Positions 2,848 through 64,000 of a stretch of DNA of 64,000 bases are shown here, one piece after another. The notes beneath the pieces were generated by a model, which saw nothing but the letters and a program-made list of their open reading frames with translations, was not told the DNA's origin and did no database searches. A program made the position numbers and the translations under genes. How positions within the stretch are numbered: the first letter of the stretch is position 1; each line of letters begins with the position of its first letter. Origin of the DNA: Bilabrum cf. latius (lineage: Eukaryota); contig OZ237771.1 of assembly GCA_965178125.1 (NCBI GenBank), forward strand, positions 1 to 64,000. The letters are read 5' to 3'.

Positions 2848-5634
2848 TCATGTCTTGATAATAAATCCCACAACGAGAGAGGGAGGTGCCATGCGGAGTG
2901 GAGCATCCCCAGAGGTCACTGTACCGCCCACTGCAGTCACTACATTTGGCGAGTATGCACTTCCAACCTTTCTCGTAGTAACACTATGCCTGTGATCTGG
3001 AAACCTGTCATGCTGCAAGGGGTTGGTCCAGCTCGCCCCGATGGTCCCCACACCGCTCACGCCGTCGATGGATGTGACCCCCTGCGCTGCAACGCCGAAT
3101 GGATACCTCCCCCTCAGATCCGGCACACTGAAAGTAGCCTCATCCGTAACCACGGTGCGATCCGTGAATGCATCTCCAATGACCGACCATAGCGTAGGAT
3201 AGCCAGCCTTGGCCAGCACCCGCCCATCACAGGGGAGCCAGCCCACGGGCACGTTTGCGGGATCGCGGACGTCTGCAGCATGCATAACGAGTGTCCCGGG
3301 AGGCACGCCGCTCCCAGAGCTACTACCACTGCCACTAGAGCTACCTGAGCCTGATAGCTGCCCTGTGGATCCATCAGACCCCACCAGGGCTGTGTTGCCC
3401 GCCACAGCCCCCGCCAGCATCGCTCCGTGCATCACCATCAAGTACTCGCTGCTGACTGCCAGCCCAACGATCTGGGCCCCTGGCTCCACGCCCTGGGCCT
3501 GTGTGACGACAGCACCATCGCGCTGTCTCGCGTAGTAGGCGGCGTGGGGAGTCAAGGTGTTGTATGGGTCATGCAGCGCCCCCGAGACCGTTGTTTGCAC
3601 CACGTTGCCGGTGGCAAGGGCGTGGGTTCGGCCCCGGGTGCTGTTGCTGCTGCGGCCGAACCTGGTGACGCCCACTGCCACCGGTCCTGGCTGCAGGAGT
3701 CCGACCCGGGCTTGGGCTGCCACGCCCGTCGATGACCGGTGGATTGCCAGGACTGAGTCTGCCACCTCTGGACTGCCAGCCAGGCCAACTGCAAGCACAT
3801 CTGTGCTCTAGCGGCTGTCACCCACGGGAAGCGGAATACCCATGGATAGCTGCAGCTCGCCATCAGTAGTCACCACACCGTCCTGCATCATTGAAGCCGC
3901 GGATCCGTCGCGATATGCCACCACGAAGCGGTTGGGCCTTGCGCAGCTCTGTGCTTCCGACACCAACCCGTACCCTCCCAGCCCAGGGCCACACGGCACC
4001 GAGGCAACGAAGACAGACAGCGCAGTAGGCACCGTGGATCCCGGGTGAATTACCACGGCGGCATGGAGTTTCACCTGCCGCACGGTCGTTCCATTGACCG
4101 ACATGCCTCGCAGGAGCAGCGCCTGGCCCTCCTCAAAGTCGCGATACGCCAGCACGGCTTCACCGGATCGCACTACGCCCAGGGCCATGTGCTCGTACCT
4201 GCCCCCACCCGGAATCGGCCCGCTGGAGGACGACTGCGGCTTGAAGCCGTCCTGGTTATTCAGCACAAACAGCTCGAATCGCCCCTGCTTGGACGAATCC
4301 CCCTGGTAGGCCAGCAGGAAGGTGTCCGAGGTAGGTGCAACCAGGGTCAGGAATCGCGATGACTGGTCTTGCTCGAGTACTAAGGCTGTTGAAAATGACC
4401 TAGTGCTGCCGTCAGAAGGCCGCACCTCCAGCGATAGACCCACGAGAGATCCGTCCTGTGGCTCGCGGGTTGCCACGACCAGCATGATGCGGTGACTGTC
4501 GCCCGTAGCTGCAGCCGGACCTGAAGGCGATCTGGAGGCAATCACCACGTCTGTTGCATCTACACGGGAACCGCCATCTCCAAGGGCTGAGGCTGCAACC
4601 TCATTCGTGGTGACGATGACTGTCGCAAGCTCAGTTGGGGCTGCGGTGGACACCTTAAAGACGGAGATCTGAACCACGCCCTTGCCACCCACAGGGGCAA
4701 TCCAAGCGCATGCCACGGCATCTGCTGCGAGACTGGCACAAGACGGCCTCGATACGTCCTTCATCGTGATGTCTGATGGGCTAAGATTGACGCTTGAGAT
4801 CTCTTCCACACCCCCGCTCGCCTCGTCAGGGCCCGGGCGAATCGGCCTGGCTCGTAGAAGGGTGGCTTGGGGCTTCGCGGTCTCCAGCTGCGAGTAAAAA
4901 GCCAGGGCCCCATGGCCGCTCCATGTAGGGGCAATGTCCATGAGGGATAAGTCTGCCGTGGCCATGCGACTGGAAGCGCTTTGCACATCGAGTCCGAAAC
5001 CAGGGCTTGCATACCCATCGATACCCACGCTCATGGCAATCATTGGTGCAATGGAGGAGGCGTTCGTGCTGCCAGGGCGCAGCGGCAGGCCCAGTGAAAC
5101 TTCTGGCCCAGAGCCCAGTACCTCAAAATCACCTCCAACTCTCAGTCCACCCGTGACGCCGAGCGAGCTGGACTTAAAGGGTGACGTCGGCTGTAGTGAG
5201 GAGGAGCTCGGGGCGAGACGGGCGATGTCGACGTGCTCAGGGCCATTGCTGATCGCGTCAAAGCCGCCAATCCGTAGTGCAATGTTATCTTCCAGGTGAA
5301 ATCCCACTTCTTCTGCGAAGTACGAGGCATCTTGGTCGTAGGCGACGGCATGCCCGAGATCGCCTGCAGTCGAGATGACCTAGGACAGCTCTCGAACCTA
5401 GCGTGACGGCGTCGAGAGCCCGCCTGTGTCCGACGAGAGGTCACTGTGTTGAGCTGATTGCGCGTTGGTTGCCTTGAGCTGGGCTTCTACCCGCTCGAGG
5501 CGGACAAGAATGTTGTTGAACCAGGACTTGCACGTCTCGATTGGGATGGAAGCGGGTTTTGCGCTAGCAGCTGCACAGCCAAACACAATTGCTACAGCGA
5601 TAGAAATACGAGTTGACTATACTGCCTTCCGCAT
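2848..5634 (-). CDS. Secreted protein (~928 aa) with C-terminal phage tail-collar domain; 4 in-frame TAG read as Gln
   Basis: ORFs 5398-5586, 3808-5307 and 2848-3798 share one frame and are separated only by TAG (5617, 5398, 5380, 3808). ATG 5634 gives a signal-like N-terminus MRKAVQSTRISIAVAIVFGCAAASA. The C-terminus PPGTLVMHA..VPVGWLPCDGRVLAKAGYPTLWSVIG..FSVPDLRGRYPFG matches the tail-collar consensus. Ends in TGA. Confidence 0.8.
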
Positions 5635-5888
5635 ATTGATAAGCTGCCGCTCGGTGTCTCGATCTGCAGCAGATATGCAAACGAAGATTCTTTATTATGA
5701 AGGATTCCACCCACTGGCACTCCGAGGGAGTCGCGCCGCGGCCGCCGGCGCTGCCACATCACTGTGGCACTTATGCTGGCAGCGTGGGGGTATCCACTTA
5801 CCCCGCGAAAAATCTTCTAACCAACTAGTCTAAGGCGTAGTGCACGCAACTGGAGTAGGTTAGGCTGAAATCGAAATCTCCACGAGCT

Positions 5889-8777
5889 TCAAGTTGCGGC
5901 CTCCCATGCCATCGCAACGGCCGTCACCCTACTCTGCAGTCGTTCGAACAATCGCTAGGCTCGGTCCTGATGCGAGGCACTGCCGCTAGCATCCACTGAT
6001 TCTTCTGCTGCCACCCTTTCTGCGGCAACCATACGAGCTGGAGCCCAGCCGGCAGCCCCACACAAGACATCCAGTGCGAACGACGGGGGAAGTCCACGCG
6101 CAGCATCGTCCAGCGGACAGACAACACCACCTCCTCTCCAGCCCACATGCAGATACGGAAACCCCTCCGGCACGCACCCGCGAAGCCCCCTGCCAGCTGC
6201 ATCGATCAAGCGAGGCTCCGCTGATGCGGAGGAAGTGCGCCTTTCAACGGCCACCCACTCCCCAAGGGCCTGTCTCATTCTTGAAGCCACGCGCGATGGC
6301 CCATCTTGAATAGGCACAGCAAGGCAGTGCACCACTGCCCGCACGCCCGCTTTGTCCACTCTGTGAGCATGCTCCACAAACACGGCTTGAAGCGGGGGTC
6401 TCGCTATGCCCGCCCCATCGCTTGGGCTAGTCTATCCGCGGTTGTATCCCGGTTTGCTCCCATCCACTTGCATGCCGCGAACCCGCCCCAGCGCGCCCTC
6501 CGGCACGGCCAGCAAGTCTTCGTCATGCGTCTGGTGAGCACCACCGCTCGCGGCACTGTCAGCCCAGTGTCCAGTCCGCTCCCACCCAGCACTTCGCGCG
6601 AGAGGCGCGGCTCCAACACCACTTGCAGCCGGTCTCTCTGCATCGTCTACAGCCGTCCACCGCGTCCCCCGAGCAGCCACCATCCGGTCGAACCGCGCCC
6701 TCAGCAGGTTACTCTCGCGATAGGCCTCCTCCTCAGCGCCCCGCACGCTCGCCACACCGGGGCCCTCCCCGCGCGCCACCAGCAGCACGTGCCAGGGGCC
6801 CAGCCTAGGACCGTCGTGCGCCGCTGATCCGCTGGTCAGTGCTCCGTGGGGCGGCTGCTGCTCCCGGGGCACGGCCACGATCCAATGCTTGCCCATGTGC
6901 ACCACCCTCGGCCCCTCGAAGGCAGGCCCTCCCACAAGGTAGGGGTCCTTCGACCTGCGCTCCTCCTCTCGCCGCCACGCTTGCGCCGCCCTTCGGCGCG
7001 CCTGCTCCTCCTGCCCCCTGCCCGTAAGGCGATCGGACGCTCCAGAGGCAAGAGCGACAGCCGCGGCCTCGTCCCCTTCTTCGTCATCCTCCCCGCGGCC
7101 TGCCCGACTGCCCCCAGCTCCCGACAAGAAACGAGCTCCTTCTGCAGCCGCCCTTCCTTTCCGCAGCAAGTTGCGGGCCATGGTCGCGTCCAGGTCCTGA
7201 GCGGCGCCCAGGGCCGCGCCCCCCACACCAGCAGCGGCCAGGGATGCGGCGCCCCCTGCGGCACCACCAGCAGCAACGGCCCGCCCCGCCGCCCGCTCCG
7301 CCCTCAGCTCCCTTGCCGCCTCGGCACGCCAGTCCAGTCCATCCCGGGCTGCAGCTCCTGCCACCGCCTCTCCATCTGTGGCAAAGCGGCGCTACAGCAT
7401 CCCATCGTCTCGCGCATGCCCGGCCACACCTGCCCGCCGCTTGCCCGCCCTGGCCCTGAGATCTCCGGACTCGAGGGGGGCTTGTGCAGGGCCTCCCCGC
7501 CTCAGCAGGGCGCCATCCACCAACCGCCCGTGCTCGTCCACCAGCGGCAACGAGGCGGGCTGGTCGGTCTTGGTGCTACTGGCGAGGGTTTTGCTCCGCA
7601 GATTGGAAGGTGCGAGCCCTGGTTCAGGTACAGAAGCGGGTGCAGGTGGCAGGGGCTTGCTTCGCTTCTTCCTTCCCAGCATTGCACGGAGAGAGGCAGC
7701 CCCTGCCCGATTGGAGCCCTGCTGTGCCCGAGCCTCTGCCCGATTGGAGCCCTCAGGCTGGTGAGAGCTAGCTATCGCTCGCATTTCCGCAACCCCTTGG
7801 CCTCCCGATAAGCTGGCTCGATGAATCGCTGGTGGAGATGGCGGCGTCGGTGGCCTATTTGAGGGCGTTTCTGTGCGCACAGCAGGGGCTGGGGCAGTGG
7901 CAGGGGCAGGGCCAGCAGGGGCAGGGGCAGGAGCAGGGGCTGGCTGTTGCACTGTCACACCCCCGATGGTGCCCCCTCGAGCACTCGCACCGGCAGTCCA
8001 GCCGGTCCCTGACACGCCAGCGCGCTTCAACTGTCGCAAAACTTCAGCCCTTCGAGCAGCGCGCCGGGTAGCGGCGCTTTGAGCATCACCAGTCTAACAA
8101 GAAGCACCTGCCTTTGGAAGAGGTGCCGCGATGCCATGCTATGCCATGCTGTCTACCACGGCTTGCTGTGTACGTTTAGCGACTGAAGGTACGGCGGGAC
8201 GCTCTGTGGCAGCCTGGCCTCGGTCTGTAGCATCTCGATACGGTGCAGACATCTAATTGAAGCGACTACGAAACGAGCCCTGGCGAGAACCCGCCTCCTT
8301 CTATCGAAACCGATCCCTGAAACCGCGCTTCGATCTGTGCGACGCGCGGTCCAGTCTTGCACCCGGGGTGAAAGCCGCATCATTCGGAAGAATCGGAAGC
8401 CCACCCCGTGGTTCATCATCAGGGCTTTGTACTTGTAAAGTACCCCCAGGTGACTTCCAAGCTTCCTATGCTTGCTAGGTATGCTGTGATTCCCGTTGCG
8501 CAGTAGCGAGCTGCGCGTCAGTCCTAGGCCTCTTTGGCGCCCGACTATCACCATCAAAACGTTTGTCAATGCTATTGATATCACGCTGCAGTACTGGGTT
8601 GACCCAAGCTCGTCTGGATTCCGCCTGCCTTGTCATTGCAACTGCACGGGCCCTCCTTTCGTCCAGTTCTGCCCTGTCGTGCTCGCGCCGGGCTCTCTCT
8701 GCTGATCTCTGCCGTTTCCTGGTGAGTCCATCAGAAGCTGAGAGCTAGGAGTTCATCTGCTGGTGTTTATCTGGCAT
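5889..8777 (-). CDS. CWF19L2: CWF19-like protein 2 (CwfJ C-terminal domains), splicing/lariat-processing factor; ~10 in-frame TAG
   Basis: Single frame from ATG 8777 (or 8756) to TGA 5889 when TAG=Gln. CwfJ-like motifs: HWIVAVP..PWHVLLV, VFVEH..AVVHCLAVP, GLRGCVPEGFPYLHVGW..FALDVLCG. Start position is uncertain. Confidence 0.75.
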
Positions 8778-9032: not shown

Positions 9033-9572
9033 AAAGCGCACGCTATCACGAAACCACAACGAGGGCCCGGGACATACGGTATCGGACTTCACGCTTCAGC
9101 TACAATGGCTTAAACCACCATGAGCTCCACCCTGGGTACCCATTACACCTGGGGAGTGTCAGCATTCACTTTCCCCCCGGCGCCCTCTGCCGGCATCCCG
9201 TCGTGCTGACCGGACCGGGCAGCCCGGTCTGGGCCAACCCTGCCTTAGCGTTGGCGATCGCCCCGGCGAAATTGTTGTTTTCGGCTGGTACTACGTCCAG
9301 GCCGGCAAAGACCTCCCGGACCGGCCTTACGAGCGCCCGTTTGGCCTTCGCTGCAGCCCTCCTCGATCCCTTCGAGACAAAACCGAGGATCCTTGAGTGG
9401 TCCTGCATGACCCATGAACGCATAGTAGGGTACACATGCTGTTCCTCGCGCACGTGCTGGTGCTGGGCGGTGACCGACAGACGAGCCTTAGCTACAGAAG
9501 ACCACGAGAGGCGCGCGTTGGCCGGAAAAGTTGAAACCCACCACCCCTTGTTCTCCTACCTCTTCTTCCGCC
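9033..9572 (-). mobile_element. Diverged 3' remnant of non-LTR RLE retrotransposon (family B)
   Basis: Homologous to 14577-15098 (WSSVAKARLSVTAQHQHVRE..MQDHSRILGFVSKGSRRAAAKAKRAL, plus conserved 3' UTR blocks). Confidence 0.85.
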
Positions 9573-9714
9573 AAACATAAATGAAAAATCAAAGTCTCCG
9601 ATCGTGCCACTCAGTGAGGCATTTATTTGAAATAAGGTGTACTTCTCTTCCCGAAAACCAGCTAGGCCTGTGACATTCTTGGAGCGAGGAAGCGAAGTCC
9701 TCCCTATCATCGAT

Positions 9715-9960
9715 AAGGACAGGACTACATGAGCGCGTGAAAGGCGAGATGCAGAACATCGTCAAAGAGGCCACGGGAGTACCTGCCATCATGGAACCGA
9801 CAGGATTACTTACCAAGGCACCAGGGACGGCAGCGCAAGGAGAAGGTGAACAGCTACGACCAGATCTAGTAGTCACTGTGGCACAACTGGTGCACAGACC
9901 AAGGACATCATCATCGACATCCGAGGGGTGGATTGCTTTGCTAAGACGTACAAGTCTGAG
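9715..9960 (+). mobile_element. Degraded restriction-like endonuclease (RLE) fragment of a non-LTR retrotransposon
   Basis: LHERVKGEMQNIVKEATGVPAIMEP..LRPDLVV followed, after a frameshift, by DIIIDIRGVD. This parallels IHETVKRELCRIGQHATG..RMDLVI..ILVDVTCVD at ~12770-12945. Confidence 0.7.
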
Positions 9961-10106
9961 CATGTAACCACCACCAGTACAGGACTAAGGGTATCAGGAG
10001 CATGAGATCACACGTTGTACACAGCACCCTAATCTCGCAGACAGTCACACATGGTTGCAGTTGGTTTCCTCCGAGAGCCCATCCTCAAAGTTACCAAAAA
10101 AAAGAA

Positions 10107-10427
10107 AACTGGCGAACGCTGCCCCTCAGCGCCCGAATAGCACGCGGCTTGATTGCCGCTCGAGTCTAATTGTGACCTCTCAACTTCCACATCCGCATGT
10201 GGTCGGTGATCCGATCCCCCTGATCCGAGACACTCGTCACACATGCCCAACCCACACCTGCCCGGCCTGTGCCTCCCCCTTCCTATCCGCCTCATCAACC
10301 CAATGACCCCACCGATCATCTTTTCCTCCACCATATCCTCCCCCGTTCCGGTGAACCGTCGTCCCCCCCTCCCTTTGCTCTACCCTCCCCCCCCTAGCTG
10401 CCCTCTCTCTCTCTCTCTCTCTCGCAC
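10107..10427 (+). repeat. Left part of a conserved non-coding repeat (element 'AB'), split by the RT retrotransposon; continues at 13836-13945
   Basis: 10107-10395 and 13848-13945 are colinear with the uninterrupted inverted copy at 25337-25795. Confidence 0.8.
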
Positions 10428-13400
10428 AGAAATCGGGCGGTCGACATTCTTGGGATGTCGAGAGAAGTCGCAGACAAGTTCACCAGGGGACAGGCGGACC
10501 TCGTCATGCAACTGTACACCGCAATCGGGTCAGGCTGGGTCCCACCACTTGCACGAATGCTCCTGACTTTAGGACGGGGCATCGGGATTGAGAAGCCGGG
10601 GAAGCCGGAACCCAGGCCACTCGGTATGGGCTCCAACCTCCTGCTTCCACTCCTTAAACATCTTGGCGACGGGCTCAAACCGTTGGTGGTGAAGAGGTGC
10701 AAGCCAGAGCAGTTCGGAGGTGGTCTTCCCTGTGGGGCAGATGCCATCTCATTCTTGGTTCGTGTGTATCTATCCACGTTCCCTGATCGTGTGGCAGCCC
10801 ACGTGGACATGAAGAATGCCTACGGCACGGTGGAGAGGGAGTCTATCATGAAGGTGTTGAGGGAGGAGAAATCCGAGGCCCTCCCCTTTGTGGCAGCACA
10901 GTTTAGATCGCCAGGGTACTCGGCGATCGTAGGATCGGATGGTGAGGTTGACATCCTGAAGAACCGGCAAGGGGTGGTCCAAGGATCACCCATGAGCCCG
11001 CCGTTGTTCTGCCTTGGTTTTGACAGGGCCCTGAAGGCAACACGAGCAGCACATCCCGACGTACTAATCCTTGCGATTGCGGATGATGCATTCCTGCTTG
11101 GAACGCGGGAGAAAGTAGCTCTTTGCATGGCTACCTTGAGAGCGGAGGTGGAGAAGGACAACCTCACGCTGCAGCCCACCAAGACGGAGTTTCACTCCCC
11201 GTCGGAGTCCACGCGGGTCGCGATCCGCGAGGATATTGATGCAGGGAGACTCCAGGGCACGCTGAACGCAGCGGGGATCGTCGTGGCTGGCATCCCGGTG
11301 TCACGTACCAGGGAGTTTGTGGAGAAGCACCTGGGAGAGCGGCTGGTGGATGTTGCAAATGGGGTCGTTCTATGCGGCCTTCTGAAGCCATCACTAGCGG
11401 TGTACGTGTTCAGGACGTGCATCCAACCCAAGTGGCAGCACTTCTGCAGGAGCGGTATTCTCATTGGCCTGGAGAAAGGGGGGACGCTGCAGAGAGTTGA
11501 ACGCCTCGAGGAGGCGTTCACGGACCTGATAGCCAGTTTCGACACAGGCCTCTATAGGGCGAACGACCAGCTCCTACGAGCTGAGTGCGTCCGCCACCAG
11601 AGGAAAGCTCCTCTAGCTCAGGGAGGAGTCGGGCTTGCACTGATCCCAGAACGTCTTGCCCTGGTAGCACGGTTCGCAGGCATGGTCCTCGATGTGGTAC
11701 CAGGACTAACTGGCCTGGCGATGAAGTACAACCTGGATTTCATGAGCGGGCTTAGCCAGCTCGAGGAGGCAACCGCAGGCCCAGTCAACAACCAACACGA
11801 CACGTACGGACTTCACAGTGCGCCTGTGCTCTAGGTGGCAGACTGGGCTGTGCGCTGGGTACTGTACAAGATGAAGGGACTGGTCCGATCGGCCAAAGAG
11901 GACCCCAACCAACGCCTCAAGTACCAGCTGTGGCACCAACCGGTGCCCCACGAGGACATGCCAGGATGTCTCAAGTCGGTGTGGGACCCGACGAGACTCG
12001 AAGAGATGCTGAGCGACCCAGAGACGAAGGCAGCACTCGAGAAGTAGGTGAAGTGTGCGGAGCACAATCTCATCACACCGGACCCGATTGAGAAGGTCAA
12101 GGTGGAAATTGCCAAGAAAGTGTTCATCGAGGTGGACCCGATGGACAACGTGTCAAGGGCGAAGCGGACCGCCGCGAACCCGGAGAGGTTCATGTTGGAG
12201 GCAAAAGGGTTGAAGAGTCACCTGAGGCATATGCAACGGCTCGCTGGGGACGATCCGATGAAGTTTGGTGGCCACCACGAAAGTTTGATGAAGAAGGCTG
12301 CAGATCGTGCCTGCACGGAGATGTTTCTGGTGAAGCCCTTCCAGAACATCCCAGGGTTCCAACAACGCCTCCTAGGAGAAGACCAACAGTGGGCAGACAG
12401 GGCCCGAGTGGAGATGCAGAGAGCAAGGGCGCTGATCAGGAGCTGCAGGTCAGCCGACGCAGGGGCGTTGCTACGCGCCTGCTACGTGAAGGAGCAGTTT
12501 GGTTATGGCGTGACCATTCCTGCCAACAAGGGGTACCAAGAGGAATTTTGCAGGCGTCTGATGGGACCGTCACCATCGGCAAGGCAGGCGCAGGAGGTGC
12601 TCAAGCGGATGCGGCACCAAGACGGGACACACGACCTGGAAGCTGAGATGAACCTGGTATGCCCGGACCCCGAGTGCCGATGCGGCACCGGGTACATACA
12701 CCAGGTAAGACACATGAGCTGCTGTGGGAACAGGCTGAAGCGAGCCACCGACAAGGGGCGGCTCACGGGCATCCACGAGACTGTGAAGAGGGAGTTGTGC
12801 AGGATCGGCCAGCACGCGACAGGATATAAAGCGTCATCCGAAGACACGGGACAGTACTTGGAGGGAAAGGATTACAGGATGGATTTGGTGATCCACAGAG
12901 GACCAGGGGAGAAGGAGATCCTAGTCGATGTGACTTGCGTGGACCCGCTTGCCCAAGCCGCACTCGCACCGATCAACTAGAGGTTCAAGAAGGGAGCACG
13001 CGAGGGGGAACGCACCGGACCTGCGAAACCCGTGGGCTCGGACTACCAGGATGAGACTGCCTGGGTCAGGGGAGCATTCAGGAAGCACAGGGAGGTTCAT
13101 TTGGAGGTGCCTCCGCACCGGAGGATGGCTGGTCGTATCCCCACGGGGGCGACGGGGAACCCAGTGAAGACGCTGAAAAATCCCAAAACGGTGATCTTTC
13201 GGGATTTTGTGATCCAGCCTTCAGGCAGGATCGGAGATGGAGCCAGAGGGGTCCTCAAGCTGCTAGCACGCATCAGGCGTAAGCGGCTCGGGAAGAATGG
13301 GAGCAAGTCAGTGGATGCCCAGGTCAGGTTCTGGGCTCGGGATATCGCCAGGTTGGTCGCCATGCGGAACGCAGCTTTCACGAGCAAATTTAACCTTAAC

Positions 13401-13835: not shown

Positions 13836-13945
13836 TCTCTCTCGCACTCCTCCGCATCGCTCCGTCGCATCTGAGCCTGCTCCTCGAGCGGGTCCTGCGC
13901 CCACCGAGTGACCTCAATCTCAGAGACCTTGCTGGCCTCACCAAC

Positions 13946-14520: not shown

Positions 14521-14542
14521 GTGCCGAAAGTTGAAGAACTTT

Positions 14543-17888: not shown

Positions 17889-17906
17889 TCCACAAGGAAG
17901 AACTTT

Positions 17907-53000: not shown

Positions 53001-54029
53001 AGGTCCTTAAAGAGGAGGCTGGCGTCGACGAGCCACCGGGTGCAGTCCACGAGTGCATCAGGGAGACTGAGATTACAAGCTCCCAGCACCAGCCACGCGA
53101 CTGGGGTATCTGGCCATGCCGCTGTTGCAGTTGATCAGCATCACTACCATCACCACAGCAGCAGCAGCAGTAGCAGTGGTCAATCTAGCGGTCAATCTAG
53201 CGGCCAGCAGGGATCTGGTTCGTAGGGTTCTACGACGTTTACGCAACAGTGGTCATGGCAGGGGCGACTGCTCCGTCGATTGCAGTCAGCAGAGGCCACT
53301 GCGGCGGACGGAGCTGGCACCTTCTTAGATCCAGATACGCTCATCGAGCAGCTAAGGGCACAGGTGTCCAATCCAGAGTCTACCCTCTTGACTCGCGGGA
53401 CTTTCTTGCCGGGCTTGACTGGCAACGTCACGCTGACAGTGCGGCAGGGCCTGTCAGGCGACGTTGTCAAAACCGTGGTCGTGCCAGTGTCTCGAAGCGT
53501 GCTGGCCTTTGGAGACGATGATGACGTACTTAACGATGATGATGGCAATGTAAGTACGGGCAACGACTCTGTCGATACCGGGTCAGATGGGCTCCAGGAC
53601 GGGGAGTAGCCAGGGGATGATGACAAGTCGGACACAGCGTTGCTTATCGCTGTTTCAGCCGCTGCGGTGTGCGGGCTAGCTGCAGTTGCACTCGCGGTGG
53701 TGCTATACATGCAGCGCACTGGGGCGCTATCGTGCGGGCGGCAGACGTCCCACCAGCAAGACCCTTAGGCCAGTTCTCCCATGAGAGGCAATGGAGGGCG
53801 GAGATCTAGCATCCAACAGGCGTCAGCTGGGTCTTCGGCCGGAAATGGCGTGCACGGCAGCACGTCGTCCGGACCATCCATCGGTGGCATGCGATCCACG
53901 CCAAACCCAATTCATTTGAACGGGCTGGGTCATGAGAGCAACGTGGTTGTCGGGCCTTCGGTAGAAACTGGCAGAGACAATTGGGACTCGACAGGATCTG
54001 GGTCGAGTCATAGCTCCGAAGAAGCGTGA
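44091..54029 (+). CDS. Giant single-pass membrane protein (~3,240 aa) with TSP1 repeats and an EGF domain; 2 introns, ~20 in-frame TAG
   Basis: Phase-compatible GT-AG introns at 44327-44406 and 45736-45871. N-terminal hydrophobic stretch, several WxxCxxxCGGG TSP1 repeats (e.g. WS[TAG]CSVECGGG), EGF CVNGGFC..CVCPPGYSGTDC, TM helix ~53637-53709, TGA stop. Start codon uncertain. Confidence 0.82.
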
Positions 54030-54391: not shown

Positions 54392-57300
54392 TCAAAGGCC
54401 ACCTCTGAAGAGCGCCACGAGTTCCTCGCTTGACAGCGTCCGGCTGTCTTGCGCTTTGCCTCCCGGTGCAAGCGCAGCATCCGCTACCTTCTATTTCCTT
54501 TCTTGAATCTTCAGCATGGACCCTTCCACGCTGGACGCAGCGATGTACCGCTTCACCGTCACAGTCCTGGGCTGGCCCAGACGGTGGATCCTGTTGACAG
54601 CCTGCTCCTCCACAGCTGCGTTCCACCAGGGGTCAAGCATGATGGCTACACACGCCTCGCTGATGTTTAGCCCTACTCCCCCGGCCTTTGTGCTGATGAG
54701 CATAAGAGGGACGTCCTTTTGTGTCTTGAAGGCGCGCAGCTGGGCAGTCCTCTGGGGGATGGCCATGCTGCCATCCAGCCTGCGGCAGCCAATGCTAGAT
54801 GCACGAATGCCCTTGGCAAGACCGACCTGCAGCTTATCCACCAGGCGCAGTTGTCCGCTGGACATGATCGCGCCGGTGTCAGCAGGCAGTTCTCTTGGTG
54901 CAGCACTCGTCTCCTTTCCTGCCATCATCCCTTCCCTCCCTGTGCCTTTGCCATCCGCACCCTACTGCATGCCCCCCAGCTCATTGCTCTTCAAGAGCAC
55001 GTCGGCAGACAACTTCCCTGCCGCGATGCTCCTGCACCTGCGCATCGCTGCCTCTGCCAAATCGAGCATGTGAGTGAACTGGGAGAACGCGACGAGCTTC
55101 ACTGGCTGAAGCCAGAGCGATAGCCGATCCTGAGGAAGCACGGTATCGAGCTGTCCGGAGCCTGATGCTGATGCTGAAGCCGATGCTGATCCTGAGGTTG
55201 AGTGGCTGATGCTTCTGCTGGCGTCATTTCCATCACGGGCAGCCATGGCTGTGTCACTTGCTCGGGGGCTGCGCTCGATATCACTGCCCTGCCCCTCGCC
55301 ACCGCCAAGGACCGGATAGTCGACCGAAGGCATCAGCCACTCCGGTAGGGCTGCCGCATCATTGGAACCATCCGATCCATCGTCCCCCATATAATCAAAT
55401 GCCGAGCGCCCGGGTACGAAACCACCGGTTGAGTCCATGGCTGCAGGAGCAGCGCCCTCCAGCCCGGTACTATCAGTGTCTGCCTGCTTTTGCTCCCCTC
55501 CCACTACACTACCTTCCATTGCAGGCTGACTTGACCTATCCTCTGGTGGCGCGGCCGAATACGACTCCTCAAGCTGTACGGTTGCGTGGCAATCAGCGCC
55601 TTCTTCTACGAGTTCATTCAACCCGTCCTTGTCGCCATCTCCTGCACCCCCTCTGAAATCAGCAGGCAGGAAATACACCTGGGCCTTCTGCTGGAAAATC
55701 TCCCCCGGAAACCGCTCCGACTTGATGTGTTTCAAATGCTGCGCCACGCTGCCGCACACTCCAGCCTGATTCTGGGCACTCTCATTGCCGTCTGCTTTCA
55801 GCTGTTGGGATCCTGGTGCCAGCCCAAGAGCGGCCATGGCCTCCTACCCTGCCTGCAGCCATGCCTCTCGCGAGACTGCGATACGCTCTTGCTCCTCGCC
55901 CTGCGCATCGAATGACAAGAGCGCCCCTGTTTGCGGCGGTGGCGATGATTTACCTCGTTGAGATGAGGAGCTGCCGCGACCAGAGCCCCCAATCCTGTGT
56001 CTCAGCTTGGGTCTGGTCCTGCCAAGTACGCGACTGCCACGCACGGCAGTCCTCCCCTTACCAGTGCTCTACTGAAAGCCATGCCTTGCAGACCCACCGC
56101 GACTCCCCTTCGTGCCGCCCTTGAATCCAGATCCTAGAGGCATGTTTCGCTGCACAGTAACTACCTCCAGTCCGTCAGAGCTTGTGCTGCCCATTGATTC
56201 GCTGTCCGAACCATCCTGGTCGCCTTCAACTTCGCTCTCATCATCGTCACTCGATGCTAGATCTACCACGCTCCCGTCAGAAGAGCCCCCACTCATTTGC
56301 ACCAAAGAATCTCGGTTCGGTGTCCGAGTCTTGCCGAAGGATCCACTAACGAGACGTTCAGCACCATCGCTCCCGTCCTCAAAGTCGGTATCACTGTCAC
56401 CACTGCTGCCGGCACTATCGCTCGCATCGGCACCGTTTTCATCGCCAGCCCGAGAGCTGCCCCCAGATCTGCCACCGCTCCCCTTTCCGTGCCGATTGCC
56501 CGTCCTAGAGATCGCTCCGGTCTGCTGGCTTGCCGCTGACTGGCTCCTGCTCAGGCGAGAAGAACGCCTCTTGAATCCACCGGTAGATCTCGCTGGACTC
56601 GGCTCGAAACGTTGCGGCGCTTTCCGAACTCGCCCGCCGCTGCGTCTTGCGGCGCTCTCGGGGAGGCTCGGGTCAGGTTTGGGTGCGCTGCTTGTGCCCG
56701 ATGGCGCTATCCCTGCCGTAGGCTCGCTACCATGCATGGTCCTCCGTTTCTTGGTCGGAGAGGGTGTGGATGAGCCGGTTATACCAGCTGACTTGGCGCG
56801 TTGTGGCAACTACAGTCCCCCAGCTGACTGCTCCACTGGTGATTGGACCGGATCCACAGGTGGCCTCTGCCGCACTTGTCCTATGGAAGGTGCTTGGAGA
56901 CTAGAGGCAGAGTCGTTGTCTGCTTCTACTTCTGCTTCTGCTTCTGCCTCTGCGTTTGCATCCAACGAGATTCCTGAAGCAGAGCCATGGGTGCCCTTTG
57001 CTCCGTGTGACGTCGCCGCTCCATCAGCACTGTCACTATCAGATGCTTGCATGATAGCCCGAGCACGTTTGGCCACCCATGATCGGATCATTCCCCTGCT
57101 CTCACACCGGAGATTGTGCTCGTGTGCTGCCCACACGTCAAGGCAGAGTTTCTGCAGCTTGGTTGAGGCGAAGAAAGCTAGCCTGGGCCTCTTCTTGTCG
57201 GCGTGCGCTGCCAGCCCAACGCGAGAGTAAAGGCCATCCTCATCACCGCTCGTACTGCTGCTGCTACCACTGCTGCTGCTGCTGCTCGGCGTACCAGATG

Positions 57301-60300
57301 CCAAGGCACCAGGAGGTTTCTGGGCGCTTTGTTCGGCGGCATCCTCCCCAGCTGGCTCGCTCGATCCCGTGTCTTGGATATCCAGCCCGTCTCGTTCATA
57401 TAGCCCGCTGCCCCCTGCCGCCACCCAGGCCTCGTGCACCAGCCCCGCAAACCTCGAGGTGCTGCCATCCATCTCAATGGGCGCGGTGTGCTGTGGTAGC
57501 ACCACCCGTCTGCACGAGGGACACGCGCTCCTGCCCCTGTGCTTGAGAGCGTGCAGCAAGCAGGCCTGGCAAAACACGTGGGCGCAGGGCGTGATCACCG
57601 GCATGTCGGGGGGCTCCATGCAGATGGGGCACTCGATCGCGTCCAGGCCCTGCTGCTCCAGTGTGACGAGTGAGTCCCACGCGTACGAGGGCAGCTCTGC
57701 CTGCGCCAGGGATCGTAAAGAGGCGCGTGACTCGTCCCGGCTGGCGGCCGCTCCACCAGCGTCACTCGATGATTTGGCAGAGTCCGCTGCAGGGCGCGGA
57801 GGTGAAACGACACCCGCTTCGCCTTTCTTTTGTGCCCGCTGGACCATGATTCGGAGGGCGGCTTGCTGCGCGCTCTCTGATGAATGCATGATGCCGTTGG
57901 CCACAAGGACCCGTTTGAGCAGCTGCTGCATCTGAGCGGGGGGGATCTTCCTCTTGGCGTCTTTCGGAGACTTTCCACCAGCTGCCTGTGTGAGTGCAAG
58001 TGCACCTGCGGATGACGACGACGATGACGGTGCTGCCTCACTGCTATCACCGCCACTTGCATCGGCACCATTGCTTGCAGCGCCAGTCCTGCTGCTGCCC
58101 GCTACCTGTTTCCCCCCAGGGGCCCTCTGCTCCTGCAAAGCGAGGAAAGGATGGTCGCACGCCTGTCGCATCCTAAGCAGTAAGATCAAAATCTCCAAGT
58201 ATCTTTTGTTGAGCGCACCCCCCGCCACGATTCCTTCGAACGTCTGCACTGACCTGCTCTTCAGTTGCTGGTAGAACCTCTGCTCCACCCCGCTCATGCG
58301 GCAGACCGTGGTGATGTTGCGCCTGGGCTGCATGGCCACGATCGGCCTCCCGTCCACGTCCCTCATATCCTTGGTACGCCGCAGCAGGATGGGCCCCAGC
58401 ACCCTCCGGACCGTCGCAATGGACCCGGGGTCCCCCCTTGCGAATGGCTCCGAGACCACGGCCTTCCACCACGACGCGTCGCTCCAGGGCTCGTGGCACA
58501 GGTACTGCAGCAGCGCGTGCACGTCGTCCAGCGTGTTCTAGATCGGAGTTCCCGTGAGGCACCAGCGAAACACGGACCGCACGGCCATGCACGCCTTTGC
58601 ACTGAGTGTTAATCGATTCCGGATGACGTGACCCTCGTCCAGCACCACCCGCCGCCAGCGAACGCCCAGCAGCGCAGCCCCACTCGGGCAGTCGAGGTCT
58701 ACTCCACATGAGTCAGAGCCGGGCCACCGAACGTTCTTCAGCTCTTCCTCCTCCATGCCAGCGCCTGCACCCGAGCTAGAGACACCCGCCCCACCAGACC
58801 CCTTGCCACCATCCTGCAGCCGACCCTCGAGCCAGTCCAGCTGTCGGAGGAACCGTTCCTGATCCGCCTCCCATCGGCTGAACGTACCAGCCCCACCTTT
58901 GGCCACCTTGTTACCACCTTTGGCTCGCCCCCTCCTGACGCTCCTTGAAACAGCGCTGACCTCCGCTCTCTAGGCCACCAGGAACTCTGACACGAGGGTG
59001 CCGTAGGTGGTCACCACCACGTCCACCTGCGGAAGAGTACCTTGAGAGCTTGACTCGCCACCAGCATGACCCGCGGCACTTTGAGCACCTGTCTTCCTTG
59101 ACATGCTGCCTCCCAACACGGCCCCGCCCTCTCGCAGCACGAGTGCCTGCGGCGTGGAGGCCCGCTTGGTGCCGTAGTGCAGCTTCACTCGGAGGAAGCC
59201 CGGGCTGCTGAATCGCTCCATCTCGTCCTTCCACTGCTGCAGCAGAGAGAGGGGAACCACCACGAGAGTGGCGGTCGATGCGTGAAGCGGACTGACCGTG
59301 GGTGTAAATTCACCGGTGGACTTGACGGGCATCGGCGCGTGGATCCGTTCGCCCTGCTGGGCCCGCCTCTCCTTGTCTGCAACTACCAGGCTCAGGATCT
59401 GGATCGTCTTGCCTAGCCCCATCGCATCGCACAGCAGTCCACCCCTGCACTCTCTCGCTCTGTCTGGAGGGTACCGACTCACCCGACGGAGATAAGGGGA
59501 CACGTACAGTGGCTGCGGCTTGAGGGACAGACCGGTGCAGCTGGTGCTGGTACTACTGGAGCTGCTGGTGCTGCTGGTACTGCTCGTCTTCTCCCCTGCG
59601 CCCACTGCGGCTGCCTCTAGTAGCACACATCTTGGCCCAGTCTCGGCACCTGCACCTGCACCATGCCCATGTATCTCCCACAGCTGGTTGTAGCCGCACT
59701 GTGTGGCACCGGGCGGCAGCACCAGCCCCGTGGAGTCCCCGCTATCGTTCTCCATGCCAGATCCTGATGCACCAGACTGCTTCATACCACCTCTGGCGTC
59801 GTCATCTTCCTCCTATTCATCATCATCCTACATAGCAGCCGCACCGGACCCACCGGTGTATCGGTCGCTCACTCCCTTCGTACGCCTCAAGTGACCCCCA
59901 CTTCCGCTCCCCCCTTCTTCCTCCCCAACTGACACAGCCTCTCTTCTCAGCATCCACCCGAGGCCTTGCGCCTGGTATGGCCTAAGTGAAAGGCCTTGCA
60001 CGTGCCTGGGCTGGGGCTCCTGCGGCAGGGCATTCTGCGCCAGCTGCAGGTCGTCCAGCCCCTTGACCTGCTCCTTGCTCTTGCTTGACACCCCGGTTGC
60101 GATGCTGAACTCGGACCCGGCACCGCCCTGGCTTGCCTGCGCTTTGTCTGCACCCATACCATCCATGCCATCCTATTCCTATTCCTCGTTTTGTGCCCGT
60201 TGGGCCTCCGCATCCGCCGCAGCTTCCGCATCCATGGCTTTGGCCTTGAGTTCAGCATCACCTGCTGCATCCCCACTGCTGTCATCGCCACCCTTCTTCT

Positions 60301-62401
60301 TGCTGTTCCTTGCCAGGATGCCGAAGGAGCCCCTGCTCTTCTTCCCCTGGCCACCACTAGATTGGGCATCGCCATCGCCGATGCCTCCCACTGTGTCATC
60401 CGATTTCGGCTCCGGAGGCATCCGACCGTGCAGCCCTGCATAAATCGAGGCAAATACATCGTCCGCCAGTCCAGTCGCTGCGAGCTGAAGCACCTGCTGT
60501 CTGGCTGCTGTCACTGGTGACCCGTGCGATACAGCAGAACCAGCACCGCCTGCGGATGGTGCAGCAGCATTGGATCTATCGACCCCGCCGCCCCCTTTGC
60601 TCTTTGAACATTGGCCCATCCCAGCCCGATTGATCTCCGCGCTGAGTAGATCGTCCGACAGCCGGGAGGTGGCAGCTGCCAGCGCACTTGCCAGTGCACT
60701 CTGCTCCTGGAGCTTGCCCAGCGCACTGGCCTGCAGGAGAGGGAAAGCCTCGGGTGCCAACACCAGCCAGCAGCGTGCCTCTATCCTGCCCTAGAGACGA
60801 GGCACACGCGCCGGCACGTGCTCCACGCGCCCAACCAGACCAAGCAGCCCCACCGCCAGGCCCTCCCCCAGCACCGCCTCCATAGCTCCGGGCAGAACCC
60901 CCATCCTAGAGCCGTGCCTATCTCCCCAGTAGATCTTCACAGGCCCCTTGACCGCTGTGGCGCTCCCTCTCACCCCCTTCGCCCTGCTCTTGCTCTTGCT
61001 CCGTGACCTGCCCCCCCCACCCAGTTTCCCCCTGCCTCTGCCCCTCCCTCTTCCCCTGCCTGTCATCGAGGAGGACGCCCCGCCCTTGCTGTTCCCCAGG
61101 ACAGTCTCCGCCGCGGATGGAGCGCCGGCAGGGCGACCGGAAGTGCGCGGTGCCTCGAGGTTCCGCCGCGCGTACAGCCACGCCAGGTTGCGACCTTCCA
61201 TGGGACCGCAACGGACAGCTTTCATCGCGCCTTGAGGCGCCGCTTTGAACCCGCCCAGTGTCCCCGTCACCACCCTTCGCAATGCGCCGCGGCCCCTCTT
61301 TGCTGCCCCCATTCCACCGAGAGACAGGCTGCCAGTGCCCGACCCCGCCCCTTGTGATTCTGCGTCTTCCGGCCGGATGCAGCCCCAGGGAACAGTGCTG
61401 GGGGGCAATCGCTGGGGCCCAGTCAATTCACTGGTGGATTCGCCAGACGCAAGGTTGTCATCGTCACCATCATCGTCACCAATGACGGGTCCCGCCGCTG
61501 TCGATGCCCTTCCTCCGCCCTCGGTCCAGAACGCAAGGGCCTGCCCCCGTCTCAACGGACATATATCGCCCCTCCACGCGCAGTACTTATTCAACAGGTC
61601 GAGCACAAAGGGCCCTACCAGGCCACTGCCCGGTCGCGGGCTGCCGGGCGCACTGCACTGCAGCACGGCCGCGGGCGGGGCAGAGTGTTCCAGCGGCCTC
61701 CCCACCAGCACCGCCTCGGCGCTGGCCGCCTTGGCGTCTTCCAGGGCCTGTCCACTCGTCACACCAGGAGAAGGTGCAGGTGGTGGTGCTAATGAGCCGC
61801 TGGTGGGCACCACATCCTGTCCCGCACCTGCTGCTGCTGCTGCTGCTGCACCCGCCCCACTGGCAGTGCCCGAGGGCTGCGTGAACGCCCTCATCATGCC
61901 CCTCTACCGCTCGACCGCTCGTTTCCTGCGCTCCCACTTTGCTTGCCACATTAGTGCTGCCTACTGATTTGCAGCGGCTTGTAGCTATGCCTACCTTGCG
62001 ATTGCGTCTGCGTCAGGGGCAACAGGCGGTGTGAGCGGGGCACCATTCGACGCTGTCACGGTGGTGGGCGGCAGCACTGGCAGAGGCTGGGGTTGAGGCT
62101 GCCTGCTTGCCTGAATCAATGGATGGCTTATATCGCGACTAGCCTGCTGCCCAGAGCCGCCAGTCAGCTCTGCTGCTTGTGATTCCTCTGCTGCTTGTGC
62201 GTCCGCAATAGCCGCGGCAATGGATGGGCCTGCTGCCTCATCCTTCGCAACTAACTGGAATCCACGCTCTAGAAGTATCCCACATGCTGCATCCAAGTTC
62301 TTTCCCCCGCGAATTATCGCCAGCCGAATGTCCTGCTGGGACACGTGCTCGCCAAACAAAGACGCCAGTCGATTCGAAAGTCGAGCCATCGTTGACGCCA
62401 T
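54392..62401 (-). CDS. RAD5: RAD5/HLTF-like SNF2 helicase with RING finger (~2,669 aa, apparently single exon); 15 in-frame TAG
   Basis: Eleven track ORFs in one frame, separated only by TAG. GGLLCDAMGLGKT, VVLDEGH, LTGTPI[TAG]N, RING CPIC..CAH.FC..C..CPSC, VAFSQF, AGGVGLN, EEQAVNRIHRLGQ. UBA/CUE-like N-terminus. Ends in TGA 54392. Confidence 0.88.
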
Positions 62402-62613
62402 AGTAAGCGTCAGATGGAGCTAGTATCGCTCAGCCAGAGGTAGACACTATATTGGATGTCTTGTAAATGCTTGATTTGATTCAATACCGCCAAGTATCTC
62501 GTGGATATTTGTACTGGCACTTGCTCTTGCGACCGAGCAAGATTCATCTCACTGTGGTGCACGTGCGCCCACCAACCTACATGGCATCTCCATTGCATAG
62601 AAGCCTTGAGCAA

Positions 62614-64000
62614 TCATTTCTCCCTTCCAGACGGCAGCTACATCCGAACACCGCTTGCTGCGGATGGTGGCGGACTGGTGCCGGCGACCACCGCACCTTT
62701 GCTCCCGGGATCGATCCCCACTGGCCTCGGGCTCCACCCCTTGACCTCGCCCTCCCTCGCGGTCCTCTGCCGACCGCTGGCGATCCCACCCGTCACTCCA
62801 ATCACCGCAGCCTTGTCCCCCTGCAGCCCCCCCTCCTGCAGCCCGGCTCCGCTGGCAATGGGAGGCACACGCACACGCTGTCCAGCCACGACCCCCGCGG
62901 CCGCCAGCTCCTCTTGCACGGCCCCCTATTGAATGAAGGCCTAGTCCGTGCGCACCCTATTTGATTTCGAGTCCCTTTGCTCCGCTGCCGGCCTCCATCC
63001 GCCCCTGCCACCTCCAGCAGCGGGCATCGCGGATCGAGGCCTCTGCCGCCGGACTCCCCTACTGCTGCTGCTTCGGCTGCTGTTGTCCGCGCTGCTGATC
63101 GCTTGGCCTACTTGCTTCCTCGATTGCATTGGTTTCTGGGCATACCGGCTCCCAGTCTTGCTCGTCCCACCATCACCCGTCCCCTGTCCCTCCAGTCTTG
63201 CCACAATCGAGGGCTCGGAGAGGGCATCGAGCCCGGCGGGCAGCAAAGGCTGCTTTTGTTCTGAGCGTCGGTGTGACGAGCCATCAATGCCAGAAACCAG
63301 CCCCGCCCCTCCTTCCCTATCCTGCTTCATCTTCATTCTGTCCCTCAGTGTCGCCCTCTCCTTCAGCCCCGGCCTGGGCGGACCGCTGAATGTCCCTCCC
63401 CCCTCGGTGGCTAGCCCCCCCTACAGCAGGTCCTTGCGCGCGGCGACAGCCCGGTTCCGCACGAGGCGGTGCATGGACGCAGTGAGCGGTCGTCGCCGCC
63501 TCTGGTTTGAATTCCGAGTCCCTTTCTGTTCCCCATGACTCGCGCTGCCGCTGCCCTGCCCTCCCTCGCCCAGCGGAGGCAGAGCGCCCGGCACAGCGGC
63601 GCCCCCTCTGCCAGAGAACAAGCCGCCCGATGCACTGTGACCGTGCTTACGCGGCATGGCGCTGTGGGGGCGCGTTCTGAGACCATGCCTATCCGTGGAG
63701 GCCAGCCGGGCTGGGGCCCCTGCTACTGCCCCTGCTCCCGCTCCCGCTCCGCCGCTGCTGGACAGGCCGTATCGCTGGTGATACCCATGCCCTGCCCCAC
63801 CGTGCAACTCACTCGTCGCACCAGTACTCTTCCGCGACCGTGGCATGGCAGAAGCTGGTCGATTCCGCGTTGCGCTACCGTGCAGTGCAGTTGCACTTCT
63901 CGACTGTGCCCTGTCCGACCCCACTCGTAGGCCAACTGCGGCCCTGCCTGCACCACCGTGCGATGCACCCGCACCCCACCCAAAGTGCGCACCACTCGCT
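62614..64000 (-). CDS. 3' part of a hypothetical low-complexity protein (runs off the window); 4 in-frame TAG
   Basis: ORFs 63421-63924, 62941-63336 and 62638-62919 share one frame, which is open to the window edge and ends in TGA at 62614. Confidence 0.6.

Follow-up and report, generated by a model that had tools for sequence, protein, structure and literature searches.

Probable reading of UAG as glutamine, with UAA and UGA as stops, in nuclear genes at a GC-rich chromosome end

In nuclear genomes UAG and UAA are nearly always reassigned together, and the reported cases in which UAG alone has been reassigned are few: Iotanema, exLh, Scotinosphaera, Protocruzia and some phyllopharyngeans (PMC5304391, PMC11687900). 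Iotanema spirale (Fornicata, Metamonada) reads UAG as glutamine and keeps UAA and UGA as stops, and its eRF1 is described as carrying a GTS motif, with Gly in place of Thr, in the N domain that reads stop codons (PMC9161772). Among the ciliates, UAG-only glutamine is reported for Protocruzia tuzeti and two phyllopharyngean lineages (PMC11687900), and UAG alone has gone to leucine in the rhizarian exLh and some phyllopharyngeans and to serine in Scotinosphaera (PMC5304391, PMC11687900). The codes in which UAG and UAA both mean glutamine (hexamitid diplomonads, ulvophycean green algae, Streblomastix, Amoeboaphelidium and many ciliates) share the change of UAG from stop to glutamine and are defined by in-frame UAA. 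No UAG-only glutamine code outside Iotanema, Protocruzia and the phyllopharyngeans was found in the abstracts and open-access passages searched.

Here we analysed a 64,000-nucleotide stretch of DNA (the window) in which, with a probability of roughly 0.88, nuclear UAG is glutamine while UGA and UAA are retained as stops. The same assignment is set out in NCBI translation table 15, a bookkeeping table and not a lineage, and it is shared with Iotanema and with the Protocruzia and phyllopharyngean cases (PMC11687900). UAG is a minority Gln codon both in Iotanema (about 8%; PMC5304391) and in the window (91 of 728 Gln-type codons, 12.5%), but Iotanema, an anaerobic flagellate of the gut, is known from a transcriptome, whereas the window is the GC-rich end of a chromosome and has TTAGGG-type telomere repeats. 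UAG is uncoupled from UAA as in exLh, Scotinosphaera and the leucine-using phyllopharyngeans, the residue here being Gln, and the in-frame UAA of the codes that reassign both codons is absent.

Genes of the window and their TAG codons

The window (60% GC) starts with a telomere repeat and is thus the end of a linear nuclear chromosome. It is subtelomeric, with retroelement remains and dispersed repeats, and has the following features.

1-1030, no strand: telomere repeat (CCCTAA)n, read directly; GC skew of the first bin -0.32
2848-5634, minus: ORF of 928 aa, phage-tail-collar domain (PF07484, E 7e-12) at its C terminus; 4 TAGs (5617, 5398, 5380, 3808); ends in TGA
5889-8777, minus: ORF of 962 aa without Pfam family; 10 in-frame TAGs; ends in TGA
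10455-13742, plus: reverse-transcriptase ORF of 1095 aa (RVT_1, E 1.8e-10); 5 in-frame TAGs; ends in TGA
14703-16349, minus: ORF of 548 aa without Pfam family; 3 in-frame TAGs; ends in TGA
19980-23099, plus: ORF of 1039 aa without Pfam family; 7 in-frame TAGs, 3 of them in a 7-residue repeat; ends in TGA
26089-27735, plus: TPR and DnaJ-domain gene; intron 26313-26455; 3 exonic TAGs (26485, 27193, 27634); ends in TAA (27733-27735)
28037-30028, plus: gene with two p25-alpha domains; one TAG (28100-28102); ends in TGA
31858-33446, minus: ArfGAP gene; intron 33120-33236; 3 TAGs (32626, 32254, 32107); ends in TGA
35043-38083, minus: ankyrin and WW-domain gene; introns 37421-37523 and 37722-37850; 3 TAGs (37413, 36090, 36000); ends in TGA
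38206-40422, plus: ORF of 738 aa without Pfam family; 5 in-frame TAGs; ends in TGA
40729-43942, plus: protein-kinase gene; skips 40729-40850 and 40892-41003 (one run); 7 exonic TAGs, 3 of them in a 14-residue repeat; ends in TGA
44225-54029, plus: large gene with thrombospondin type 1 (TSP1) repeats; introns 44327-44406 and 45735-45870; 4 + 16 TAGs; ends in TGA
54392-62401, minus: SNF2/RING/Helicase_C (Rad5-like) ORF of 2669 aa; 16 in-frame TAGs; ends in TGA
58538-58540, minus: TAG in SNF2 motif III (TGTPI-TAG-N), more informative than any other single site of the window
62614-63846, minus: ORF of 410 aa without Pfam family; 4 in-frame TAGs; ends in TGA

A homologous-protein search with the reverse-transcriptase ORF gave just three distant matches; by eye, a Cys/His-rich part of the ORF at 14703-16349 resembles its C-terminal part. 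Also judged by eye are an EGF-like stretch and a C-terminal hydrophobic segment in the TSP1 gene.

The longest stop-free frame between positions 1301 and 64000 grows from 676 codons under the standard code to 2867 when TAG is read as sense (a further frame reaches 2718), against 676 for TAA and 955 for TGA read as sense. Over 50 first-order shuffles of positions 2201-64000 the maxima were 398, 579, 522 and 1050 codons, respectively. The lengthening with TAG as sense is therefore far beyond chance, while TAA as sense gives no gain in ORFs and the TGA figure falls inside the shuffle range.

With TAG translated as X, 15 ORFs begin with ATG and reach at least 400 aa; their 15,058 codons include 96 in-frame TAGs, and the final stop is TGA in 14 of them and TAA in the other. 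Five TAGs are noncoding, four of them in introns seen in spliced contigs and one in a wrong frame upstream of an intron, and the intron at 45735-45870 links the ORFs at 44225-45739 and 45486-54029 into a single gene. This leaves 91 coding TAGs in 14,814 codons of 14 genes. A sequence-only reading of the same DNA had counted about 90 in 13 otherwise intact ORFs; it was right that no frameshifts are needed, but introns interrupt several of the frames. Six TAGs that it had singled out are all in frame: 58538, 28100, 37413, 50553 in the TSP1 gene, 54491 after QERK and 27634 before PQQQQ. Some TAGs are spanned by Pfam domains, the SNF2-rel_dom match (residues 809-1419) holding TAG codons 858, 863, 1144 and 1288.

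Within the 20 kb examined for splicing (26001-46000) there are eight skips of 80-143 nt bounded by GT..AG (CT..AC on the minus strand). The contigs that carry them come from runs X5, X6 and X7, of two studies other than that of X1, a flat-depth DNA run in which the skips are lacking. Depth in X5-X7 is very uneven, at 0-0.22 in the intergenic bin 30670-31336, compared with 23 in X1. The kinds of these runs are guesses made by the software, with no RNA run listed on record and X5 marked "probably DNA", and we call their contigs transcript-like. The listed pieces of these contigs cover 14 of the 26 exonic in-frame TAGs of this region, all unchanged and with no other letter, and no row of differences falls on any TAG. 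The TAGs sit inside expressed, spliced, conserved coding sequence.

Evidence for glutamine

A related species was found in three metagenome assemblies (L001, L002 and L003). The ORFs of L001 and L002 are identical, and L003 differs from them at two codons; L001 opens with the last part of the DnaJ gene, as seen in a tblastx comparison of the loci with the window that was otherwise mostly noise. The GC content of the relative is lower than that of the window (GC3 0.58). Its p25-alpha orthologue has about 80% protein identity, and 645 codon pairs divide into 267 identical, 284 with synonymous and 94 with non-synonymous differences, the differences falling at 101, 62 and 343 first, second and third positions; the gene is under strong purifying selection. 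The relative's frame of 701 codons holds five TAGs and no TAA and ends in TGA at the window's stop. Opposite these five TAGs the window has CAG three times, CTG (Leu) once and a shared TAG once (28100-28102), and the 14 CAG codons of the window's gene align to seven CAG, four CAA and three TAG. At the corresponding residue of the two internal repeats, window and relative alike have TAG in repeat 1 and Q in repeat 2, as the sequence-only reading had noted for the window. Further relatives were sought among viral contigs and genome contigs, and none was found there. Protein-database fragments from relatives all start at Met and cover none of the window's TAG sites, among them P0004 (68% identical), P0005 (94%) and P0007 (85%) for the TSP1 gene.

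The TAG in SNF2 motif III was another site named as diagnostic in that reading, and it has held up; of the sites so named, only this one and the p25-alpha repeat are informative. Alignments to PDB structures alone are ambiguous at this position, with I in Rad5 of K. lactis, E in an archaeal Rad54-like protein and Q in ISW1, and we therefore made a count over 150 homologues. The 149 best homologues covering the site have Q in 114 cases, V in 24, I in 5, H in 2 and L, T, S and M in one each, with no E and no K. The same cannot be said of two more of the proposed sites: the residue after QERK is variable among 91 homologues (K 18, A 12, R 12, S 9, E 9, Q 7 and others), and paralogous repeats of the TSP1 protein and its relative show A, E, E, E and K at x of WS-x-CS. 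TAGs in the SNF2 insertions are likewise variable or poorly covered by homologues. A rough likelihood over all five informative sites favors Gln over the next-best residue by about 10^5, and since four of the five are TAGs of the relative and not of the window, the argument for Gln assumes one code for both species.

That UAG is a sense codon for some other amino acid, such as Glu (as in peritrich ciliates and Blastocrithidia), Ser (Scotinosphaera) or Leu (the rhizarian exLh), has several observations in its favor. In three degenerate internal repeats the codon opposite TAG is GAG (Glu), CGG (Arg) or GAA (Glu) and not one for Gln, and TAG often lies within acidic runs such as DDDE-TAG-EEDDD. 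Glu is enriched 1.58-fold beside TAG and Gln barely so (1.12-fold), and a classifier based on neighboring residues did not single out Gln, with R, E, A, L and V scoring above it. One orthologous pair is TAG/CTG, and one DNA contig, the sole X1 contig there, reads TCT (Ser) through differences at 42051-42052 where the protein-kinase gene of the window has TAG (42050-42052); its depth of 69.8 compared with about 15 elsewhere suggests that it may be a paralogue. Against these stand the TAG/CAG match in three of the four differing orthologous pairs, the restriction of all 14 p25-alpha CAGs to CAG, CAA or TAG, the scarcity of E, S and L at motif III (0, 1 and 1, compared with 114 Q) and a rough likelihood about 10^6 below that of Q for each of E, S and L. 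We consider another residue very unlikely. The earlier suggestion of a sense UAG, most probably glutamine, accordingly gains from the relative's codons, the 149 SNF2 homologues and the transcript-like contigs.

Termination at UAA and UGA

The DnaJ gene ends ...RFTFRFG-TAA, and at the same aligned place its orthologue in the relative ends ...RFTFKFG-TGA; readthrough of the TAA would extend the frame by another 41 codons. The code therefore agrees with NCBI table 15 (TAG as Q, TAA as stop), which reproduces this gene end, and the earlier claim that UAA has not been reassigned is supported by the orthologous pair of stops. In this small sample, which consists of one gene and the absence of UAA from the frames, UAA remains a terminator and has no in-frame use. 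UGA terminates as the usual stop, and the p25-alpha orthologues have TGA at the same aligned position. In-frame UGA, the mark of codes of the Condylostoma and Blastocrithidia type, was not found, nor was in-frame UAA alongside UAG, either in the window or in the relative's p25-alpha gene. As a control, among more distant p25-alpha homologues the stop of L008 and L009 is TAG at the very position at which L010 and L011 have TGA, so that the method does detect TAG as a stop.

The scarcity of TAA in the window (240 occurrences, compared with 456 of TAG) and its use as an end in only 1 of the 15 ORFs, which is thin direct evidence for a stop, would also fit a code in which UAG and UAA both mean glutamine (NCBI table 6) and UAA is merely rare in a GC-rich genome. 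The 14,814 codons contain no in-frame TAA, an absence that, like that of in-frame TGA, follows from the ORF definition itself, but the other two frames of the 15 ORFs have 33 and 51 TAAs (and 264 and 329 TGAs), and with TAA as a sense codon at those rates a 2847-codon ORF unbroken by it is not expected. Reading TAA as sense lengthens no ORF, the relative has five TAGs and no TAA in spite of its lower GC content, and the window's one TAA stop is aligned to a TGA stop; we regard this code as slightly less probable again than another residue at UAG. An ambiguous UAG, read as glutamine inside genes but as a stop close to mRNA ends, as in codes that lack dedicated stops, is compatible with the sample of just 14 genes, and an ORF definition with TAG as sense hides any TAG terminator. 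The relative's p25-alpha gene, however, has 46 conserved codons past its last TAG to the shared TGA, and 32 codons follow the last TAG both in the SNF2 gene and in the DnaJ gene, where they run to the orthologous stop. With homology of the C terminus beyond the last TAG, translation must pass that TAG, and ambiguity falls lower still in our estimate. The location of the window, subtelomeric and with retroelement remains and dispersed repeats, could mean that the TAGs are untranslated, whether through pseudogenes, C-to-T sequencing errors or repair by RNA editing. We give this almost no weight, as the frames are interrupted solely by TAG and never by TGA or TAA, transcript-like contigs from other studies retain the TAGs, and in independent metagenome assemblies of the relative the p25-alpha gene, which is under strong purifying selection, also has TAGs, one of them at a codon where the window has TAG too.

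Origin of the code and its meaning

The UAG-as-glutamine code is common to at least one related species and so arose before the two split. It appears to be absent from L005, the next-nearest holder of a two-domain p25-alpha gene, whose homologous gene parts are without in-frame TAG. Of the 30 SNF2 homologue clusters looked up, 5 carry organism names: Cafeteria, Discosporangium, Thlaspi, Amorphochlora and Closterium, a mixture of stramenopile, plant and rhizarian with Cafeteria the best; Iotanema is a metamonad, and no metamonad is among these nearest named homologues. A protein atlas yielded no taxon of use. In ciliates, telomeres typically consist of C4A2 or C4A4 repeats, and the macronuclear chromosomes of phyllopharyngeans are typically the size of a gene. 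Unlike the ciliates with UAG-only glutamine, the window has a (CCCTAA)n telomere, 60% GC and a single chromosome arm, over 64 kb long, that carries many genes. We see about even odds that this is an independent, undescribed origin of glutamine at UAG with UAA as stop, in a free-living, GC-rich clade that is neither ciliate nor metamonad and possibly a heterotrophic stramenopile, with at least two species in environmental metagenomes and a change that predates their split and appears absent from L005. The organism had also been taken for a flagellate, which it may be; the p25-alpha gene is the only basis for that reading.

By analogy with other lineages, a tRNA-Gln with anticodon CUA would read UAG and would be unable to read UAA, and eRF1 would have lost recognition of UAG while keeping that of UAA and UGA. 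ARAGORN detected tRNA genes neither in the window nor in 11 other loci, an Rfam search of the window gave nothing at the gathering score and no rRNA, and the eRF1 gene is absent from the window.

Each UAG-only case tests how a release factor drops one codon and keeps its near twin, and the present one would bring an assembly that reaches the telomere, transcript data and a sequenced relative. Gene calling under the standard code would split almost every gene of this genome into pieces. If the independent origin is true, the clade would be a tractable, genome-sequenced model for the uncoupling of UAG from UAA.

Reading frames with UAG as a sense codon

With standard stops, the longest stop-free frame past the telomere has 676 codons, a length that does not change when TAA is read as sense. 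Reading TAG as sense instead gives frames of 2867, 2718, 1172, 1080, and 1007 codons, compared with at most 579 codons for the longest such frame in 50 first-order shuffles, which bears out the proposal of the sequence-only reading that UAG is a sense codon. With TGA as sense the longest frame is 955 codons, within the range of 50 first-order shuffles (maximum, 1050). The 15 ATG-started open reading frames (ORFs) of ≥400 aa comprise 15,058 codons, of which 96 are TAG; TGA is the stop in 14 of these ORFs and TAA in the other. Both of these codons are common in the two other frames of the same ORFs (33 and 51 TAAs, 264 and 329 TGAs), and their absence from the long frames is thus not an effect of base composition. 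All six individual TAG sites named in the sequence-only reading were found in place. The recognizable products are as follows.

2848-5634: collar-domain protein
10455-13742: reverse transcriptase
26089-27735, plus strand: TPR-DnaJ protein
28037-30028, plus strand: double p25-alpha protein
54392-62401, minus strand: SNF2/RING/Helicase_C protein, 2669 aa, with a TAG in motif III at 58538-58540
Further products: ArfGAP; ankyrin/WW protein; protein kinase; giant thrombospondin-repeat protein

Long frames also occur antisense to genes, such as one of 532 aa opposite p25-alpha (28390-29988, minus strand). These are by-products of high GC and TAG read-through and not genes, and ORF counts under a TAG-sense code exceed the true gene number.

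CCCTAA repeats, read directly, fill roughly the first 1 kb of the window, which therefore represents a linear chromosome end. The subtelomeric structure (1031-2260) comprises a 243-nt unit present twice behind the telomere (1036-1278 and 1367-1609, 98% identical), a 54-nt tandem repeat over 1784-2053, and short interstitial CCCTAA tracts near 1700-1735 and 2195-2215. The 928-aa product of the gene closest to the telomere has an apparent N-terminal hydrophobic segment, judged by eye, and a phage-tail-collar domain (PF07484; E value, 7e-12), a domain unusual for a eukaryotic gene. Dispersed repeats lie around the reverse transcriptase ORF (regions 9219-18196 and 24913-25998; for example, 9219-9518 with 14749-15048 at 88% and 14533-14832 with 17897-18196 at 98%), and inverted repeat pairs extend to 25 kb. 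On visual inspection, the minus-strand ORF at 14703-16349 has a Cys/His-rich C-terminal part in common with the reverse transcriptase ORF, which appears to resemble the restriction-like endonuclease of site-specific non-LTR elements. GC content across the window is 0.52 to 0.65, and neither tRNA genes nor Rfam families at gathering score were found in it.

Introns and TAG codons in transcript-like contigs

Sequence nearly identical to that of the window is present in sequencing runs X1-X7, from three studies and under three organism labels, with 54 to 99% of the sampled words in common; the difference in labels could stem from naming variants or from mixed cultures. Small shares of the window sequence also occur in runs with protist and algae metagenome labels. 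Contigs were aligned over 26001-46000, where the DNA run X1 has a flat depth and no intron-like skips. In X5, X6, and X7 the depth is very uneven and falls almost to zero in the intergenic bin 30670-31336, and the contigs skip 80 to 143 nt at eight places bordered by GT..AG (CT..AC for minus-strand genes), three of which occur in each of the three runs. The run kinds are guesses, and X5 was marked as probably DNA, but because of the uneven depth, the nearly empty intergenic bin, and the GT..AG borders, we treated these contigs as transcript derived.

The genes thus contain introns; the long uninterrupted ORFs had hinted at an intron-free genome, but eight short introns were seen instead. Five of the 96 TAGs are noncoding: introns account for four, and the fifth is out of frame, upstream of the intron at 45735-45870, which joins the ORFs at 44225-45739 and 45486-54029 into a single gene. 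After this correction, 91 coding TAGs remain in 14,814 codons, or 12.5% of the Gln codons if TAG is Gln. Region 26001-46000 has 26 exonic in-frame TAGs, at least 14 of which lie inside the listed X5-X7 contig pieces without a differing letter, and no difference between these runs and the window falls on a TAG. RNA editing and sequencing error therefore do not account for the TAGs.

The amino acid read at UAG

The TAG in SNF2 motif III is the best single site in the window. Alignments with PDB structures were ambiguous at this position (Ile in Kluyveromyces lactis Rad5, Glu in an archaeal enzyme, and Gln in ISW1), and a 201-residue stretch around it was therefore searched against 1.84 billion representatives and the best 150 matches were scored. 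The column is covered by 149 of these and holds Q in 114, V in 24, I in 5, H in 2, and L, T, S, and M once each; E, K, Y, and W do not occur among the 149.

Another line of evidence comes from metagenome contigs scanned with the TAG-free part of p25-alpha, which returned 11 loci. Two of these (L001 and L002) have identical ORFs and a third (L003) is off by two codons, and they thus represent one species in three assemblies. The orthologue in this relative has about 80% protein identity to that of the window and the same two-domain layout. Comparison of 645 codon pairs gave 267 identities, 284 synonymous differences, and 94 nonsynonymous ones, with 101, 62, and 343 differences at the three codon positions, a pattern that points to strong purifying selection over a well-diverged pair. 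In its 701-codon frame the relative uses TAG five times and TAA not at all, and its TGA stop coincides with the stop of the window gene. Its TAGs are aligned with TAG once, CAG three times, and CTG once, and the 14 CAGs of the window gene are aligned with CAG (7), CAA (4), TAG (3), and nothing else, so that TAG acts as a third synonymous Gln codon. In both species, the TAG in p25-alpha repeat 1 corresponds to Q in repeat 2. As a control, in an AT-richer and more distant p25-alpha group with one conserved C terminus (L008-L011), L008 and L009 stop with TAG exactly where L010 and L011 stop with TGA, which is ordinary stop usage.

Some observations would fit a residue other than Gln. One orthologous pair is TAG/CTG (TAG in the relative), two degenerate internal repeats pair TAG with GAG, CGG, and GAA, and the residues neighbouring TAGs give no pointer to Gln. 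Two sites that had been put forward as diagnostic lost that value, since the position in QERK-TAG-K is variable among homologues and the paralogous repeats have A, E, E, E, and K at x in WS-x-CS. The sole X1 contig over 42051-42052 has TCT in place of the in-frame TAG of the window (42050-42052); it may be a multicopy kinase paralogue, as its depth is 69.8, compared to about 15 for long X1 contigs, and it lies in a stretch of raised X1 depth (42009-44009). Against these stands a rough likelihood combining four orthologous pairs (BLOSUM80-derived conditional probabilities) with the observed SNF2 column, which places Gln about five orders of magnitude above the next residue and about six above Glu, Ser, and Leu, with most of the weight coming from the TAGs of the relative and on the assumption of one code in both species. 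This favors Gln, as the sequence-only reading had considered most likely.

That UAA had kept its role also agrees with our data. The TPR-DnaJ gene ends in TAA, and L001 starts with the end of the orthologous DnaJ gene, which has the same last residues followed by TGA. The relative has a third-position GC content (GC3) of only 0.58 and yet no TAA in its reading frame. With in-frame TAA absent in both species, these orthologous ends show, on a small sample of sequences, that UAA is a stop, and UGA is the usual one. NCBI table 15 reproduces this reading, and we put the probability of this code (UAG as Gln, UAA and UGA as stops) at roughly 0.88.

Affinities and origin of the code change

Organism names were looked up for 30 of the best 150 SNF2 homologues, which gave five named clusters: Cafeteria roenbergensis, which ranks second among all matches (183 residues at 49% identity), a brown alga (Discosporangium), Thlaspi, a chlorarachniophyte (Amorphochlora), and Closterium. 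None of these five is a fungus, a ciliate, or a metamonad, but one 200-residue stretch is insufficient to place the organism, and a protein atlas yielded no informative taxon. A telomere of the TTAGGG type, high GC content, and a many-gene chromosome arm presumably argue against ciliates. Genes for p25-alpha accompany cilia or flagella.

The assignment of UAG to Gln is itself already known (table 15). In the sources consulted, nuclear UAG-only Gln, as read in the window, is described for Iotanema spirale (PMC5304391) and for Protocruzia tuzeti and two phyllopharyngean lineages (PMC11687900); UAG alone is described as Leu in a rhizarian and in some phyllopharyngeans, and as Ser in Scotinosphaera (PMC5304391, PMC11687900). 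A search of literature without supplements and most subscription journals found no published UAG-only Gln in a GC-rich nonciliate, and the chances that this lineage is truly undescribed as a user of the code are evenly balanced, as the authors of the assembly may already know of it.

According to PMC5304391, a CUA anticodon decodes UAG and cannot read UAA, which allows UAG to be reassigned alone. In Iotanema, the GTS motif of eRF1 has Gly for Thr, which is thought to lose contact with the G of UAG (PMC9161772). By analogy with other lineages, a tRNA-Gln(CUA) would be expected to read UAG here, and by analogy with Iotanema, eRF1 would have dropped UAG recognition. The next-nearest holder of a two-domain p25-alpha gene is a GC-rich (0.67) metagenome contig (L005, 1-15782), in which this gene is split by introns and adjoins a DnaJ-domain ORF; no in-frame TAG occurs within the homologous parts of the p25-alpha exons and the DnaJ-domain ORF, a hint from these parts of two genes that L005 could be a standard-code relative bracketing the change. 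A TAG at one codon common to the window and its closer relative, together with the use of TAG by both species, indicates that the code change is older than their split.
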